Source: a virus
Lineage: Duplodnaviria; Heunggongvirae; Uroviricota; Caudoviricetes
Strand: one strand, 5' to 3'
DNA length: 34,670 nucleotides
IMG/VR virus record: IMGVR_UViG_2563366941_000005
Shown: positions 1-23,365 of the stretch, piece after piece
Layout of the letters: every line of letters begins with the position of its first letter
Position numbering within the stretch: the first letter of the stretch is position 1
Notes under the pieces: model-generated
What the model was told of the DNA's origin: nothing
Databases searched by the model: none
The model's input: the letters and a program-made list of their open reading frames with translations, nothing else
Program-made: the position numbers and the translations under genes

Positions 1-74
1 TCCGTAACGCCTCTGCCACGCGCGTAACGTGACAGGGATTAAGGGTAAACTAACTGATTTTACAAGTTTTTATT

Positions 75-1361
75 TTACCCCACTTTCTTATGGGGCATAC
101 ATGGGACACTTTCAGATAGTCTTTTGTTAAGGAGTTCTATCTGTTCGTGATTGTTGTCTTTCATCCATGCTCCGTAAACATTGAATACCATTTGTGCGTT
201 TGTGTGGCCCATCTGGCTTGCGATAAAACTAGGATTAGCTCCAGCGGCAAGTGACCAGCATGCATAAGTATGCCTGGATTGGTACGATTTTCTGTGTCTC
301 AGACCTGCGCGTTTTAAGATACTTGTCCATGACTCCCTGATGGAGTCAACCTTATAGTGCGGTCCGGAAAACTGCCGCTGTTTTATTACCTGAGGACTAA
401 AAACAAAAGTGCATTTATGCACAGTACTTCTCCCATATTCCCTCTGCTTTACCTCTACAGAATGTTGCTTTCCAAGCATGGTCATTTCCGCCTGACTTTT
501 AAGAGCATCAATAGCTGGTTGAACCAGATGAATTGTCCTTCCGGTGCCAGCATCGGTTTTTGGTGGAGTGAATTCGCCAAGTTTTGTATAATTCCTACGG
601 ATGGTTATAGTCCTTGCTTTAAGATCTATATCTTCCCATGCCAGCGATACCAGCTCCCCGTGACGAATACCCGTGTATACAGCGAGAATCCACAGGTTTT
701 TTGTTTGTTGATGACGGCAAGCCTCAATAAAACGAATAAATTCGTCACGGGTGAGAGGATCTGGTTTTACCTTGGACTTTTTTAAGGGTGCCAGACCGTT
801 AAATGGGTTTCCTGAGGTATAACCATTATCTGTTGCAAATTGAAACATTCCAGCTATGGTTGTCATATAGTAGTTTACTGTGACCACTGAGCGCCCTTTT
901 ATGGAAGAAATCTTTCCATTAGAAAGCTTTTGGTAACCGGTCAACAAATCTCTCCTTGCGAAAAGTAAATCCTCTTTTGTTATGGATGAAACCAGTTTTT
1001 TCTCACCCAACATAGGCAACATGTTTTTAATTACTGACTGGTAACGATTAAGTGCATTCGCACAAATCTCAATTTTCTTAAGGTCCAACCATTTTTCCGA
1101 AAGTGCCTTAACGGTTATCTCTCTTTTTCCCAGACCAAAGTGTTTCAGGTTAGGGGAATTAGGGAACTGTGTGGCGTAGTCGAAACACCCCATTCTGATT
1201 GCAAAACAAACGGAAGTGCGAAGTTCACCTGCGATCTTCCGGTTTTTGGCGGTGTCAGGAACACCGAGGTTTTCTCTGACACGTTTGCCATTATAGTGAA
1301 ACCATATACGGAGTGATCCTCCATGGTTTTCAACGCCTGTCGGGTATGATACGTTACTCAT
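75..1361 (-). CDS. int: Phage integrase, tyrosine recombinase with lambda-Int-like N-terminal arm-binding region
   Basis: 428-aa ORF; C-terminal catalytic region with conserved R..H..R..Y context (HTYACW, GHTNAQM, VYGAWM); GGGAGG RBS 7 nt upstream of ATG at 1361; first gene at prophage left end. Confidence 0.9.
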   Translation of the reverse strand: MSNVSYPTGVENHGGSLRIWFHYNGKRVRENLGVPDTAKNRKIAGELRTSVCFAIRMGCFDYATQFPNSPNLKHFGLGKREITVKALSEKWLDLKKIEICANALNRYQSVIKNMLPMLGEKKLVSSITKEDLLFARRDLLTGYQKLSNGKISSIKGRSVVTVNYYMTTIAGMFQFATDNGYTSGNPFNGLAPLKKSKVKPDPLTRDEFIRFIEACRHQQTKNLWILAVYTGIRHGELVSLAWEDIDLKARTITIRRNYTKLGEFTPPKTDAGTGRTIHLVQPAIDALKSQAEMTMLGKQHSVEVKQREYGRSTVHKCTFVFSPQVIKQRQFSGPHYKVDSIRESWTSILKRAGLRHRKSYQSRHTYACWSLAAGANPSFIASQMGHTNAQMVFNVYGAWMKDNNHEQIELLNKRLSESVPCMPHKKVG

Positions 1362-1394
1362 TAAACCTCCCAGACGTCCAGGAGCATTAACAGG

Positions 1395-1649
1395 TTAACC
1401 GGAACTTGCATTTTTGGCACCTGGTTGTTTCTGGTTTTCGATCCATCGCATAATTTCTTCGATGTTGTACAGGCATTCACTGTAATGCCCAGGATCACCT
1501 TCTACAGCGTAATGGCGGTATTCTTTTCCCTGCATCCATGACTTTCTTCTGGCCCGCTCGATGGTGCCGGGCTTTAGCCCTGTTGATGCAATAAGGACTC
1601 TCTCCGTACACCATTTGCTGGGGGTTATCTGATAGATGATTGTCTGCAT
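1395..1649 (-). CDS. Excisionase-like small protein
   Basis: 84-aa ORF directly upstream of int in the same orientation; size and position typical of Xis; GAGG RBS. Confidence 0.6.
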   Translation of the reverse strand: MQTIIYQITPSKWCTERVLIASTGLKPGTIERARRKSWMQGKEYRHYAVEGDPGHYSECLYNIEEIMRWIENQKQPGAKNASSG

Positions 1650-15309: not shown

Positions 15310-15326
15310 TTTTGTGGAGAAAGTTG

Positions 15327-15698
15327 ATGCGTGATATTCAAATGGTTCTTGAACGTTGGGGGGCATGGGTGGCAAATAATCACGAGGATGTGGAATGGTC
15401 ATCTGTTGCTGCAGGTTTTAAGGGATTAATTCCTTCGAAAGTAAAATCCCGCCCGCAATGTAGCGATGACGATGGCCTGATCATTAGCTCTGCGATGACA
15501 GTTCTTAAGAAAAAGGAACCGTATCAATACGAATTACTGGAAATGTATTATGTGTATGGGGTTACATTACGGGTGTTGGGGGTAAAACTGGGGATATCAC
15601 TTAATCAGGTTGTTATCAGACTGCAGAAAGCTGAAGGGTTTATTGACGGTTGTCTGGCAATGTTGGGGGTATCTTTAGAAATTGATTGTTACATATAG
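15327..15698 (+). CDS. Q: Late-gene antiterminator Q
   Basis: MRDIQMVLERWGAWV N-terminus typical of the phage antitermination Q family; GGAG SD; immediately upstream of the late region. Confidence 0.7.
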   Translation: MRDIQMVLERWGAWVANNHEDVEWSSVAAGFKGLIPSKVKSRPQCSDDDGLIISSAMTVLKKKEPYQYELLEMYYVYGVTLRVLGVKLGISLNQVVIRLQKAEGFIDGCLAMLGVSLEIDCYI

Positions 15699-15817
15699 TA
15701 ATAAATTCAATCAAAGTAAATAATCATATTTTATTATAACCTCCTGATGATACCTGTTCATTGGTGATGCTGCCAACTTACTGATTTAGTGTATGATGGT
15801 GTTTTTGAGGTGCTCCA

Positions 15818-16093
15818 GTGGCTTCTGTTTCTATCAGCTGTCCCTCCTGTTCAGCTACTGACGGGGTGGTGCGTAACGGCAAAAGCACCGCCGGACATCA
15901 GCGCTATCTCTGCTCTCACTGCCGTAAAACATGGCAACTGCAGTTCACTTACACCGCTTCTCAACCCGGTACGCACCAGAAAATCATTGATATGGCCATG
16001 AATGGCGTTGGATGCCGGGCAACAGCCCGCATTATGGGCGTTGGCCTCAACACGATTTTACGTCACTTAAAAAACTCAGGCCGCAGTCGGTAA
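15818..16093 (+). CDS. insA: IS1 InsA
   Basis: 91-aa [40 protein letters not shown]..., recognised as IS1 InsA. Confidence 0.95.
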
Positions 16094-16515
16094 CCTCGCG
16101 CATACAGCCGGGCAGTGACGTCATCGTCTGCGCGGAAATGGACGAACAGTGGGGCTATGTCGGGGCTAAATCGCGCCAGCGCTGGCTGTTTTACGCGTAT
16201 GACAGGCTCCGGAAGACGGTTGTTGCGCACGTATTCGGTGAACGCACTATGGCGACGCTGGGGCGTCTTATGAGCCTGCTGTCACCCTTTGACGTGGTGA
16301 TATGGATGACGGATGGCTGGCCGCTGTATGAATCCCGCCTGAAGGGAAAGCTGCACGTAATCAGCAAGCGATATACGCAGCGAATTGAGCGGCATAACCT
16401 GAATCTGAGGCAGCACCTGGCACGGCTGGGACGGAAGTCGCTGTCGTTCTCAAAATCGGTGGAGCTGCATGACAAAGTCATCGGGCATTATCTGAACATA
16501 AAACACTATCAATAA
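16012..16515 (+). CDS. insB: IS1 InsB reading frame (transposase made as InsAB-prime by -1 frameshift)
   Basis: 167-aa frame; A6C slippery motif TTAAAAAACTC at about 16066-16076 in the insA/insB overlap. Confidence 0.9.
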
Positions 16516-16551
16516 GTTGGAGTCATTACCCCTGTTCATTGGGAGGTTATT

Positions 16552-17169: not shown

Positions 17170-17298
17170 TTTTATGTTTGGTATTCAGAGTTCGCCGTGC
17201 TTAAGAAAGTCAAGATTCTAAAAATACTGAATGAGCTACTTGTGTTATAACAAAAATGCTATTAGTGTGTTAAGAGTGGTTACTTCGCCACACAACTT

Positions 17299-17325
17299 AA
17301 ACCCGCCACTGAGCGGGTTTTTTGT
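17299..17325 (+). terminator. Rho-independent terminator after the 205-aa ORF
   Basis: Stem ACCCGC, loop CACTGA, stem GCGGGT, then TTTTTT. Confidence 0.7.
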
Positions 17326-17447
17326 ACCTGTAAACTTGGTGCAGTACAGTAAACACGCTGGTGGTCGTGAATACTGGCTTTTTATCTTGCTGGCTTTTTA
17401 GACAAGAGTTATTGGTATGTCACGTTAACCGGAAAGGGTAAAAAGAC

Positions 17448-18493: not shown

Positions 18494-18521
18494 TTTTCAT
18501 CTGATTATTATTTTTTGGCTC

Positions 18522-18597
18522 GGCCCTTTAGCTCAGTGGTGAGAGCGAGCGACTCATAATCGCCAGGTCGCTGGTTCAAATCCAGCAAGGGCCACCA
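18522..18597 (+). tRNA. tRNA with CAU anticodon (Ile2-lysidine type, ileX/ileZ-like; could be scored as Met)
   Basis: 76-nt cloverleaf: acceptor GGCCCTT/AAGGGCC, D arm GCTC/GAGC, anticodon loop CTCATAA, T loop TTCAAAT, encoded CCA. Confidence 0.85.
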
Positions 18598-18604
18598 TCA
18601 CATA

Positions 18605-18681
18605 CCGCCATTAGCTCATCAGGAAAGAGCGCCAGCCTTCGAAGCTGGTTGCGCGGAGTTCGGGTCCCCGAAGGCGGTTCA
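18605..18681 (+). tRNA. tRNA-Arg-like (anticodon UCG), noncanonical
   Basis: D arm GCTC/GAGC, anticodon stem CCAGC/GCTGG with loop CTTCGAA, T loop TTCGGGT; one acceptor and one T-stem mismatch; 3-prime end TCA instead of CCA. Confidence 0.55.
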
Positions 18682-18694
18682 TTATCTGTATCCT

Positions 18695-18771
18695 GCGTTG
18701 TTAGCTCAGCCGGACAGAGCAATTGCCTTCTAAGCAATCGGTCACTGGTTCGAATACAGTAGAACGCGCCA
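18695..18771 (+). tRNA. tRNA-Arg (anticodon UCU)
   Basis: Acceptor GCGTTGT, D arm GCTC/GAGC, anticodon stem ATTGC/GCAAT with loop CTTCTAA, T loop TTCGAAT, encoded CCA; one acceptor mismatch and a G/A at the T-stem closing pair. Confidence 0.65.
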
Positions 18772-18786
18772 CACTTATTTTCCCTG

Positions 18787-18810
18787 GCTCGCTTTTGCGG
18801 GCTTTTTTTT
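18787..18810 (+). terminator. Rho-independent terminator after the tRNA cluster
   Basis: Stem GCTCGC, loop TTTT, stem GCGGGC (one G-U pair), then T8. Confidence 0.7.
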
Positions 18811-19245
18811 AAATGTCTCACAATTCAGGCGGTTGACTGTTGTCTGGTTTGCGGGGAGTTTGTTAAAAGAAACTGGCATGGTGAATCCCCCTGTGCGGAG
18901 GGGCAATCAGCGAGTAGGTATATGGGATAATCGCGGATTCAGGTGCTGGTACTGAATTCACCGGGAGGCACCCGGCACCATGCAATGGCACATAGTGCCA
19001 CTCTCCAGCCCCTCTCCGGAGGGGCTTTCTTGTGGGCAAAAAAAAGCCCGAGTGGGTTCGGGCAACAGCATGAGATATACATTTTTATAATCGAATGGAT
19101 TTTAACCAGAATTCATAAGGCTGCGCAACTGCGCGGTCTTTTTCGAATTGCGGGCTGTCGTCTCTCTTCTGCCATTGTCCTGTAACTTCCGGACTTCAGC
19201 CCGCTCCTTATTTTACTCACAATATTATCCCGGCCGGGAGGATTC

Positions 19246-21207
19246 ATGGCATTTAAACACTATGACGTGGTCAGGGCGGCATCGCCGTCAGACCTTGCGA
19301 AACGACTGACACAAAAACTGAAGGAGGGGTGGCAGCCATTTGGCAGTCCGGTGGCCATCACGCCTTATACCCTGATGCAGGCCATTGCGGCGGAAGGTGA
19401 TGTCACCACACCTGTGGTGGTGAAGCCGTCGGATGGAGAAGGCGCAGTTATCAGCACTACCAGCAACCCGGAGTATTACTTTGTTGTTGCCCTGGCCGGG
19501 CAGTCAAACGGTATGGCGTATGGTGAAGGGCTTCCGCTGCCGGAGACATATGACCGTCCGGACCCGCGTATTAAACAGCTGGCGCGTCGCAGCACTGTCA
19601 CGCCGGGTGGTGCGTCCTGTAACTACAATGACATTATTCCTGCGGACCACTGCCTGCATGATGTTCAGGATTTGAGTAAGTTTTCACACCCGAAAGCCAG
19701 CGCAGCTCAGTATGGATGCGTGGGGCAGGGATTACATATCGCGAAGAAATTGTTGTCGTTTATTCCGGCGAATGCCGGTATTCTTCTGGTTCCGTGCTGC
19801 CGTGGTGGTTCTGCATTTTTGGCGGGCGATGAAGGTACCTTCAGCGAATCCACCGGCGCAAGCGAGACCTCGGCACGCTGGGGTGTAGATAAGCCACTGT
19901 ACAAGGACCTGCTTACCCGTACTCAGGCCGCACTGAAGGCCAACCCTAAAAATATTCTGCTTGCAGTGGTCTGGATGCAGGGCGAGTTTGATTTGAAACA
20001 GGGTGCATACGCCACTCAGCCGGGGCTGTTTGATTCCATGGTGGAAAAATATCGTTCTGACCTGTCGGAATTCGGAGGTCAGTGTCTCGGGGGCTCTCCG
20101 TCATCAGTTCCCTGGATTTGTGGCGACACGACCTACTACTGGAAGCAGACTTATTCTTCGCAATACGATGCGGTGTATGGTGCATATAAGACGAAATCCG
20201 CAAAAAAAATCTTCTTTGTGCCGTTTATGACGGATGAAAACGGGCGAAATGTGGGTACCAACGAGCCGTCAGAAGATCCGGATGTTGCGGATATTGGGTA
20301 TTACGGAGCCGGTGGTCGAACGGACGCCAAAACCTGGACGACGGCTGACCGTAAAACGCATTTTGGATCATGGGCACGTCGTGGGATTATTTCCGACCGT
20401 CTGGCAACGGCGATTCTTGTGCATGCCGGGAGAACCGCTGAATTCATTACCGGAAAACAGCCTGATACGGTGAAGCCCACCGGACCTTCCGGTGAAGGTA
20501 CGGAGAGAGAGCCGGAAGGTCCGGTCAGTAACCGAACCCTGATGAGTCTGCTGGCGTCCGGCGAAGACCTGGCATCACAGGGCTGGCGCTATTATCACAA
20601 ACCGGCGAGCGGAGACAATGTTAACAAAAACATTGCTGAAGCGGTGGTCAGTGATGCGGGGGCTACGGGAGGTAAGGCCCTGCAACTGAATAAACCGGAA
20701 AACCACATCTGGTTTCTGGAGCATGATGCAGCCGGGCAGGGGGCAGAGTTGCTGAAGAAAGGAGGACGTGTGAGCGTACGGTTTAAGTTGCCGGGTTCAC
20801 TGGTGCCGAATCAGTTTGCCCTGGGCATTTACTGGCAGTTGTCGTCCCTGCCGGAGGGAGTGACGCTGGCAGAGGAAGGCAACGACATGCTGATGTCCTT
20901 CTTCCTGCAGACGGATGCGACGAACCTGAACGCGATGCACCACAAGAAGCCGAATGCGAAGCTGGATACGTTCGGGGTCTTTGATAACGGATGGCACACA
21001 CTGGCTTTTGAGTTTGCCGGAAACAACAGCATTCAGGTGACGCCGGTACTGGATGAGAAACGGGGGACGCCGTTCACACTGGTGAAATCTCCGGCATCAG
21101 GGGCGGCGGACAAACTGCAACTGACAGGCATATCAAAGGCGGCGACATATACGCTGCTGATTGACAGTGTGAAGGTGGAAGTGAACAACGCGGATGCCGC
21201 GGCATGA
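19246..21207 (+). CDS. Prophage sialate O-acetylesterase (NanS-p-like; SGNH/SASA hydrolase)
   Basis: 653-aa ORF; GQSN catalytic motif (VALAGQSNGMAYGEG); GGGAGG SD; located between the tRNAs and the lysis genes as in Stx-phage-like prophages. Confidence 0.75.
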   Translation: MAFKHYDVVRAASPSDLAKRLTQKLKEGWQPFGSPVAITPYTLMQAIAAEGDVTTPVVVKPSDGEGAVISTTSNPEYYFVVALAGQSNGMAYGEGLPLPETYDRPDPRIKQLARRSTVTPGGASCNYNDIIPADHCLHDVQDLSKFSHPKASAAQYGCVGQGLHIAKKLLSFIPANAGILLVPCCRGGSAFLAGDEGTFSESTGASETSARWGVDKPLYKDLLTRTQAALKANPKNILLAVVWMQGEFDLKQGAYATQPGLFDSMVEKYRSDLSEFGGQCLGGSPSSVPWICGDTTYYWKQTYSSQYDAVYGAYKTKSAKKIFFVPFMTDENGRNVGTNEPSEDPDVADIGYYGAGGRTDAKTWTTADRKTHFGSWARRGIISDRLATAILVHAGRTAEFITGKQPDTVKPTGPSGEGTEREPEGPVSNRTLMSLLASGEDLASQGWRYYHKPASGDNVNKNIAEAVVSDAGATGGKALQLNKPENHIWFLEHDAAGQGAELLKKGGRVSVRFKLPGSLVPNQFALGIYWQLSSLPEGVTLAEEGNDMLMSFFLQTDATNLNAMHHKKPNAKLDTFGVFDNGWHTLAFEFAGNNSIQVTPVLDEKRGTPFTLVKSPASGAADKLQLTGISKAATYTLLIDSVKVEVNNADAAA

Positions 21208-21923: not shown

Positions 21924-22139
21924 ATGTACCAGATGGAAAAAATCACAACAGGTGTGTCATACACCACGTCAGCGGTGGGAACGGGCTACTGGTTCCTGCA
22001 GTTGCTGGACAGGGTTTCCCCGTCTCAGTGGGCGGCAATAGGCGTGCTGGGGAGTCTGCTGTTTGGGCTGCTGACATATCTGACTAACCTGTATTTCAAA
22101 ATCAGAGAGGACCGTCGTAAGGCTGCACGGGGAGAGTAA
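21924..22139 (+). CDS. S: Holin, pinholin type (phage 21 S-like)
   Basis: 71 aa, two TM segments, dual-start motif MYQMEK, C-terminal [13 protein letters not shown]; precedes a SAR endolysin. Confidence 0.8.
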
Positions 22140-22831: not shown

Positions 22832-23365
22832 ATGAACGCAAAAATCAGATACGGCCTGTCGGCTGCCGTTCTGGCGCTGATTGCCGCTGGTGCGCCTGCG
22901 CCTGACATTCTCGACCAGTTTCTGGATGAAAAGGAAGGTAACCACACCACGGCATACCGTGATGGCGCGGGTATCTGGACCATCTGCCGCGGTGCCATCC
23001 TGGTGGATGGCAAACCTGTCGTTCCGGGCATGAAGTTGTCGAAGGAAAAATGCGACCGGGTTAACGCCATTGAGCGTGATAAGGCGCTGGCATGGGTGGA
23101 GAAAAACATCAGAGTGCCATTGAGTGAACCCCAGAAAGCGGGGATCGCGTCATTCTGTCCGTACAACATTGGTCCCGGTAAGTGTTTCCCGTCGACGTTT
23201 TATAAACGAATTAATGCAGGTGATCGCAGGGGAGCGTGTGAGGCGATTCGCTGGTGGATTAAGGACGGTGGCAGAGACTGCCGTATCCGCTCAAATAACT
23301 GTTATGGTCAGGTATCCCGTCGTGACCAGGAGAGCGCGCTGGCGTGCTGGGGAATCGACAGATAA
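22832..23365 (+). CDS. R: SAR endolysin (T4-lysozyme family with N-terminal signal-anchor-release domain)
   Basis: N-terminal hydrophobic SAR segment YGLSAAVLALIAAGA; catalytic E-8aa-D-5aa-T triad (EGNHTTAYRDGAGIWT). Confidence 0.85.
   Translation: MNAKIRYGLSAAVLALIAAGAPAPDILDQFLDEKEGNHTTAYRDGAGIWTICRGAILVDGKPVVPGMKLSKEKCDRVNAIERDKALAWVEKNIRVPLSEPQKAGIASFCPYNIGPGKCFPSTFYKRINAGDRRGACEAIRWWIKDGGRDCRIRSNNCYGQVSRRDQESALACWGIDR

Follow-up and report, generated by a model that had tools for sequence, protein, structure and literature searches.

Tree et al. 2014 (PMC4104026) describe the sequence 3' of the Q-antiterminated PR' as tolerant of 'morons' and as the location of convergent sRNA genes. 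In prophage Sp5, EcOnc02 (AsxR) and EcOnc27 are found 3' of stx2B, and the organization of Sp3, 4, 9, 10, 11, 15 and 17 is similar to that of Sp5 (PMC4104026). The anti-sRNAs measure 51-60 nt; their 3' part is conserved, and 14-18 variable nt at the 5' end set the target. AsxR destabilises FnrS, and AgvB is a mimic of a GcvB target (PMC4104026). STnc100 is the Hfq-bound EcOnc27/sRNA103, encoded just 3' of stx2B (PMC12711010), 75 nt past the stx2 operon (PMC12370729). It is related to PasD, which lies directly 5' of a sialate esterase gene, and fewer than 3% of chromosomal PasA genes adjoin stx genes (Zhu et al. 2026, doi 10.64898/2026.05.13.724894). The nanS-p esterase gene is also found in non-Stx prophages (PMC10462455). 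In 933W and Sakai Sp5, the complete order at the stx2 locus is Q - PR' - ileZ argN argO - stx2AB - EcOnc27/STnc100 - AsxR - nanS-p - S - R - Rz.

Several described prophages resemble the locus analysed here and carry no toxin. The stx-less Sakai prophages Sp3, 4, 9, 10, 11 and 17 (PMC4104026) have, like it, a convergent pair of an anti-sRNA and a plus-strand sRNA downstream of PR'; they differ in that the 5' seed of the anti-sRNA studied here has neither the AsxR nor the AgvB sequence. In the Stx-negative phi296, phi315, phi367, TL-2011a, PPwrbA and PhiR49_2, the tRNA trio is likewise followed by STnc100 without stx. However, phi296 has approximately 33 extra nt at the junction and no recognisable anti-sRNA, and PhiR49_2, an induced phage with the same empty junction (96% identity), lacks nanS-p. 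EPEC and EHEC prophages have the order PasD/STnc100 - sialate esterase - holin - lysozyme (Zhu, Shabalina, Storz 2026 preprint), with the sRNA directly 5' of the esterase as in our case.

Late region and flanks of the stx position

The DNA analysed (hereafter the window) is a stretch of 34,670 nucleotides of viral origin, the features of which are collected in Table 1. In the reading that we consider highly probable, it is a lambdoid prophage with a late region of the Stx-phage type, its moron site is unoccupied, the 475 bp between the tRNAs and the esterase gene are an RNA island, and the empty allele was most likely inherited.

Table 1. Features of the late region, by position in the window; the last row refers to comparator loci.
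Feature	Position	Strand	Evidence
Q	15312-15698		PF06530
IS1, intact, 768 bp	15763-16530		perfect left inverted repeat, InsA/InsB frames
PR'-proximal qut/tR'-like segment with terminator hairpin	17268-17328	+	80% identical to 933W locus 1694-1754
tRNA, CAU anticodon, ileZ-type (tRNA-Ile in related records)	18522-18597	+	ARAGORN; Rfam tRNA 72.5 bits
tRNA-Arg (UCG), argN-type	18604-18680	+	ARAGORN; Rfam 43.4 bits
tRNA-Arg (UCU), argO-type	18695-18771	+	ARAGORN; Rfam 53.4 bits
Intrinsic terminator 3' of argO, left border of slot	18786-18810	+	terminator scan; fold z-score -3.5
Actual cargo (moron) junction, unoccupied	about 18806-18813	.	BLAST break points vs 933W, KE26, Stx2a_1447; junction sequences; surveys
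5' border of STnc100 module, right border of slot	18814-18846	+	motif AAATGTC-TCACAATTCAG-GCGG-TTGACT, 18811-18838
STnc100-family sRNA	18847-19037	+	Rfam RF02076, 137.8 bits, gathering score 47, E = 2.8e-31
STnc100 own terminator	19007-19026	+	terminator scan
AsxR/AgvB-family anti-sRNA, convergent with STnc100	19093-19041	-	Rfam AsxR RF02703, 63.0 bits, E = 1.4e-08
Anti-sRNA terminator stem	19063-19046	-	terminator scan
Terminator-like GC-rich hairpin and T-run, about 100 nt 5' of nanS-p	19117-19145	+	fold
nanS-p 5' leader with long-range stem	19146-19245	+	fold; invariant alignment columns
NanS-p-type sialate O-acetylesterase, 653 aa	19246-21207	+	Pfam DUF1737 + SASA + DUF6645
P21-S-family holin	21924-22139		
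Phage lysozyme	22832-23365		N-terminus MNAKIRYGLSAAVLALIAAGAPAP, hydrophobic, Ala/Gly-rich
Tandem STnc100 modules	L005 3586-3791, 4069-4278; L007 2827-3017, 3295-3504		

A first-pass annotation had recognised a Stx-phage-like scaffold from the order Q, tRNA trio, esterase, pinholin and SAR endolysin, and had placed stxAB of Stx phages between the tRNAs and the esterase. This order is correct, as the tRNAs, the esterase (homologous to 933W L0105 and BP-4795 yjhS), a P21-S-family holin, a lysozyme and an Rz homologue were all found in the sequence; a DUF1327 protein is also encoded downstream of the esterase. Q, however, does not adjoin the tRNAs, but is separated from them by 2.8 kb.

The likeness to Stx phages was borne out at the nucleotide level, beyond a lambdoid gene order. 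By BLAST, window 18518-18809, comprising the three tRNAs and the terminator, is 92% identical to the 933W DNA directly 5' of stx2A, and 18814-19353 is 80% identical to 933W DNA in a match starting 42 nt past the stxB2 stop codon. A segment of 1,335 bp of 933W (promoter, stxA2, stxB2) has no counterpart in the window, where the two cassette flanks abut; because these flanks match on either side of the junction, the stx2 cassette is cleanly absent. Homologous tRNAs and terminator, STnc100, anti-sRNA, a conserved hairpin, nanS-p leader, nanS-p and lysis genes follow each other in the order of 933W and Sp5, whereas the interval from Q to the tRNAs holds other cargo, namely IS1, a 205-aa ORF and an AraC-family regulator. 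The PR'/tR'-like segment and then a 65-aa ORF are found between the 205-aa ORF and the regulator.

Other Stx phages share one or both sides. Break points in Stx2a_1447 were the same as those of 933W on both sides, and a Stx2k phage has the left one in common with the window. BP-4795, a Stx1 phage without the tRNAs, shares the right side alone: its BLAST match begins at window 18876, after stxB1, and its border motif aligns from 18818. For the first 25 kb of the window, the best sequenced phages were Stx2a, Stx2c and Stx2k converting (45-63% coverage, 92-94% identity; 63% and 92% for Stx2a_1447/WGPS2, 55% and 93% for the Stx2c phages). Stx phages are strongly over-represented in the phage collection, which inflates their rank. 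The window has the late architecture and flank homology of a Stx-converting phage (tRNAs, terminator, STnc100, nanS-p, P21-type holin, lysozyme), and no stxAB operon in its late region. Comparison of the stx1 and stx2 cassettes with the whole window by blastn and tblastx gave matches at chance level only. Neither a stx promoter nor any other stx remnant or linker was detected; the argO terminator, homologous to that of 933W, is kept.

This terminator consists of a stem (18786-18803) and a run of eight T up to 18810; its homologue in 933W bears the annotation 'terminator upstream of the stx genes'. Of the tRNAs that precede it, the CAU one has zero differences from those of 933W, phi296, KE26 and FDAARGOS_1301. 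The argN-type tRNA encodes TCA in place of CCA at its 3' end, and its Rfam score is 43.4 bits versus 54-56 bits in 933W, KE26 and Stx2a_1447. For the argO-type tRNA, the score is 53.4 bits versus 68-70 bits in eight comparators; aligned with four loci, it shows two substitutions absent from them, one at the base that opens the 3' strand of the T stem and one at a C of the acceptor stem, each of which breaks a pair of the cloverleaf. These two tRNAs may be decaying in the prophage.

The segment 16552-18493, between Q and the tRNAs, is accessory cargo of the prophage. Its 205-aa protein (40% GC) belongs to phrog_8498 and its 65-aa TrmB-like protein to phrog_331. The best matches of the 237-aa AraC-family regulator are YdeO and GadX, far under the cut-offs (108.5 vs 348 bits), and we take it to resemble the prophage-encoded PatE/Psr class. 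The block made of the 65-aa ORF, the regulator and the tRNAs is common to the window and the Stx2k phage phiSTEC1575, at 92%. The qut/tR'-like segment, 61 nt long and ending in the intrinsic terminator AAACCCGCCACTGAGCGGGTTTTTT, does not follow Q directly but lies approximately 1.6 kb further downstream, a separation also seen in Stx2a_1447; in 933W, the matching locus is annotated as the end of pR', qut and terminator. The qut/tR' leader region of 933W gives rise to the StxS sRNA.

The IS1 copy is flanked by the direct repeat CCTGTTCATT and lies 22 nt 5' of the ATG of the 205-aa ORF. Its insertion looks recent, because the prophage region of strain 19AR1724 (L001) is approximately 780 bp shorter at this site and has no annotated transposase. 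Since the PR'-like segment lies beyond IS1, late transcription would not necessarily be blocked by the insertion. 19AR1724 is the best genomic match; identity of the window with it was considered and rejected, as the coordinate offset failed owing to IS1, present in the window alone. The late region and the first 200 bp of the window are common to both, and the 19AR1724 integrase adjoins mlrA (yehV) (L001 annotation; window 1-1400), which we take to be the integration site of the O157:H7 Stx1 prophage.

The cargo junction and its occupants

The whole interval of 475 bp had been equated with the stxAB slot. The position equivalent to stxAB is instead a junction of a few bases, between the T-run of the argO terminator and the 5' border of the STnc100 module. 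This border motif is kept 3' of stxB2, of stxB1 and of TerB/DUF3927, as well as at empty sites. In KE26, a TerB-family gene and a DUF3927 gene (749 bp) are inserted at the exact two break points of the window, and in E-1246, DUF3927 is followed by a STnc100 allele 98% identical to that of the window, with iraM in place of the anti-sRNA. The site thus behaves as a moron insertion site in the sense of Juhala and Hendrix: flanks that adjoin here are parted in relatives by an autonomous unit, be it stx2, TerB+DUF3927, phrog_2873 or a methyltransferase-like ORF, and for stx2 the base composition is 44% GC vs 50%.

Two collections were surveyed. Among 5,426 complete E. coli genomes, a 91-nt probe across the window junction was intact in 1,026, a stx2-type junction probe in 599 and a TerB-type one in 914. 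These frequencies are indicative only, since clinical strains are over-represented in the collections of complete genomes and phages. At 100% identity, the window junction is present in ATCC 11775, the type strain, and a chicken isolate named ST95 also has the empty junction. In IMG/VR, the exact border motif was present in at least 120 contigs, and 94 motif sites with argO within 6 kb were sampled. Of these, 48 were empty, ten with the exact 46-nt spacer of the window; the others held a 108-aa phrog_2873 protein (26/94), stx2 (13/94), TerB+DUF3927 (4/94), a methyltransferase-like ORF, an IS3 insertion or an uncharacterised sequence (1/94 each). Alternative cargo, for which a survey of related genomes had been proposed, is found at this very point. 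The architecture of a toxin-free Stx-phage relative is published and extremely common.

In the IMG/VR sample, no other occupant of the stx-equivalent position is as common as the phrog_2873 protein. It matched no family of Pfam or NCBIfam. Identity with IraM was discarded when BLASTP against annotated IraM gave nothing. At one IMG/VR locus of this kind (L013), the distance from argO to the STnc100 border is 667 bp.

It could be that the empty allele goes back to a past deletion of non-toxin cargo of the TerB+DUF3927 type, by slippage or recombination between the T-run of the terminator and the TTTTTAAAT ahead of the STnc100 module. Such a T-run-mediated loss is possible because T-runs flank this cargo on both sides and, at the T-run, the BLAST segments for KE26 have 4 nt in common. 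The cargo end in KE26 and E-1246 reads ...GAAATTTTTAAATAC(C/T)TCACAATTCAGG, and the window reads ...GCGGGCTTTTTTTTAAATGTCTCACAATTCAGG; in empty sites, the length of the T-run ranges between 7 and 9, and the E-1246 allele of STnc100 next to DUF3927 is, as said, nearly that of the window. However, all these sequences fit an insertion of cargo into an empty site equally well, and no intermediate or remnant was seen. We regard a deletion of this kind as rather unlikely, and prefer an empty allele that was inherited as such.

RNA genes between the tRNAs and nanS-p

What had been called an empty toxin slot contains two known sRNA genes and terminators, which Stx phages also carry 3' of stxB. The match of the first to the STnc100 family scores well above the gathering score and is full length (model positions 1-206 of 206), with a fold z-score of -2.55, and the allele is 80% identical to that of 933W. 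Judged by its sequence, this candidate gene overlaps with EcOnc27/sRNA103, an RNA that has been detected experimentally, and is related to PasD. Its 5' border is presumably the promoter region of the sRNA. A sigma-70 consensus scan of 18800-18850 gave no promoter match for STnc100. The conserved TTGACT, considered by eye as a -35 element, was rejected for want of a -10 element at 16-18 nt spacing, and a CRP-like half-site and a sigma-54-like motif near STnc100 were dropped as unconvincing.

In the eight comparator loci fetched, STnc100 is directly 3' of the cargo (8/8). That it follows every cargo examined suggests STnc100 modules as the homology through which cargo is shuffled. KE26 and FDAARGOS_1301 each have two diverged modules in tandem, and each module opens with the TCACAATTCAG...TTGAC border soon after the preceding terminator.

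The second gene, on the opposite strand, encodes a putative anti-sRNA of the AsxR/AgvB family. Its AsxR score equals the gathering threshold of 63 exactly, the AsxR of 933W itself scoring 88.1 bits. The AgvB score (Rfam RF02702, 43.4 bits) is under the gathering threshold of 56; the alignment has a 7-nt gap inside the CA-rich AACAACACAACA GcvB-mimic motif, which is unrecognisable in the window. Six of the 53 positions differ from 933W AsxR, four of them in the first 18 nt, and the last 24 nt (terminator stem-loop and U-tail) are identical. The RNA thus has the marks of the class of Tree et al. 2014, namely its length, a conserved 3' part with terminator, a variable 5' end and convergence with a plus-strand sRNA; a convergent anti-sRNA is also present in 933W, BP-4795 and KE26. 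Having a distinct seed, it may be functionally distinct and titrate a different host sRNA. With RNAduplex, pairing to the FnrS terminator reached -5.0 kcal/mol (25% of shuffles equal), compared with -8.5 kcal/mol (8%) for AsxR, a measure weakly discriminating even for AsxR. Against full-length FnrS, the 5' 26 nt paired no better than shuffles for all variants, AsxR included.

Several GC-rich hairpins had been noticed in the interval. They are real and all could be assigned: the argO terminator, those internal to STnc100, the STnc100 terminator, the anti-sRNA terminator, the hairpin at 19117-19145 and structures of the nanS-p leader. The hairpin 19117-19145 folds at -18.3 kcal/mol (z-score -4.2, 0/200 shuffles equally stable) and is near-invariant in the window, 933W, BP-4795 and phi296, though the anti-sRNA region of phi296 differs. 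Weak Rfam matches (Leu_leader, OmrA-B and others) merely reflect this hairpin and were set aside. A CCCGGCCGGG palindrome (19229-19238) overlaps the Shine-Dalgarno sequence of nanS-p and does not vary among the four sequences aligned. Transcriptional or translational control of nanS-p by the hairpin and the palindrome is possible.

With four terminator-like hairpins within 475 bp ahead of the late genes, the interval could conceivably act in cis only, as stacked terminators and a leader for nanS-p and the lysis genes, the similarity to sRNA families being without trans function here. That STnc100 had no sigma-70 promoter match in our scan, and that the anti-sRNA seed paired with FnrS no better than shuffles, are consistent with this. 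But late transcription cannot be terminated in cis by a minus-strand RNA, the match to the STnc100 structure is full length and high-scoring, and the O157 counterparts are described, in PMC4104026 and in PMC12711010 (which cites EDL933 work), as Hfq-bound transcripts with trans effects. A purely cis role therefore appears improbable, and we retain the reading of an RNA island with two sRNA genes.

Origin of the empty state and its meaning

The first-pass annotation had left open whether the locus was a toxin-less relative of Stx phages or a site that had lost its cargo. For the latter, a Stx-converting ancestor would have undergone a precise deletion of the stxAB cassette, with rejoining of the flanks. 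The nearest sequenced phages of the backbone are indeed Stx2a, Stx2c and Stx2k converting, the Stx2k phage has the left flank with AraC-family regulator and tRNAs at 92-93%, and repeated stx loss is deemed possible by Zhu et al. 2026 (doi 10.64898/2026.05.13.724894). However, no remnant of the cassette is left, and even the approximately 14-nt ATATCTGCGCC linker of occupied sites is missing. On the right flank, identity is 98% with alleles of stx-free comparator loci, but just 70-80% with those next to stx in Stx phages. Moreover, the identical junction in 1,026 genomes, including that of the E. coli type strain, is spread across very different E. coli lineages, non-STEC ones among them. Loss of stx from this prophage is thus very improbable, and the toxin-less relative is favoured. 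The empty state is most likely an inherited, widely circulating allele of a mosaic locus, and probably did not arise through a recent loss of stx.

The interval had also been described as non-coding, which holds, as no credible protein gene was found in 18772-19245: ORFs of 40-80 aa are present and hypothetical proteins are annotated at the locus in some records, but it is scarcely credible that a small protein is encoded (by the 80-aa GTG ORF at 18943-19185, or by a minus-strand fragment marked as a pseudogene by PGAP), since neither the 80-aa nor the 57-aa ORF matched a Pfam family, indels of 1, 2, 4 and 14 nt among homologues break the 80-aa frame, and structured RNAs account fully for the region.

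The slot is the gap between two independently selected units, the tRNA-cluster terminator on the left and the STnc100 5' border on the right, which touch here. The RNA island comprises a STnc100/EcOnc27-type sRNA of approximately 190 nt on the plus strand, an AsxR/AgvB-family anti-sRNA of approximately 53 nt on the minus strand, their back-to-back terminators, a further hairpin and the nanS-p leader. The locus may work as follows. By analogy with their homologues, each sRNA would be expressed in the lysogen from a promoter of its own and act in trans via Hfq, and the anti-sRNA would use its variable 5' end to titrate a host sRNA. In the lysogen, nanS-p and the lysis genes would be kept silent by the stacked terminators; upon induction, Q-modified polymerase starting at PR' (approximately 17.2 kb) would pass all of them into nanS-p, holin, endolysin and Rz.

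Two further readings are proposed jointly, and tentatively: the anti-sRNA would have a new host-sRNA target, and the STnc100 modules would be portable homology arms for cargo. If this is true, STnc100 modules and the T-run of the tRNA terminator let stx, TerB/DUF3927 and phrog_2873 swap at one point, with no dedicated recombinase.

In lambdoid prophages, what looks like a 'gap' from the tRNAs to nanS-p is not to be taken for an empty or decayed toxin site. With the junction unoccupied, this well-known cargo hotspot is in its normal and most frequent state; annotation pipelines usually miss its two regulatory RNA genes. The borders, the argO terminator T-run on the left and TCACAATTCAG...TTGAC on the right, offer a simple means to list the cargo that prophages carry at the Shiga toxin position.
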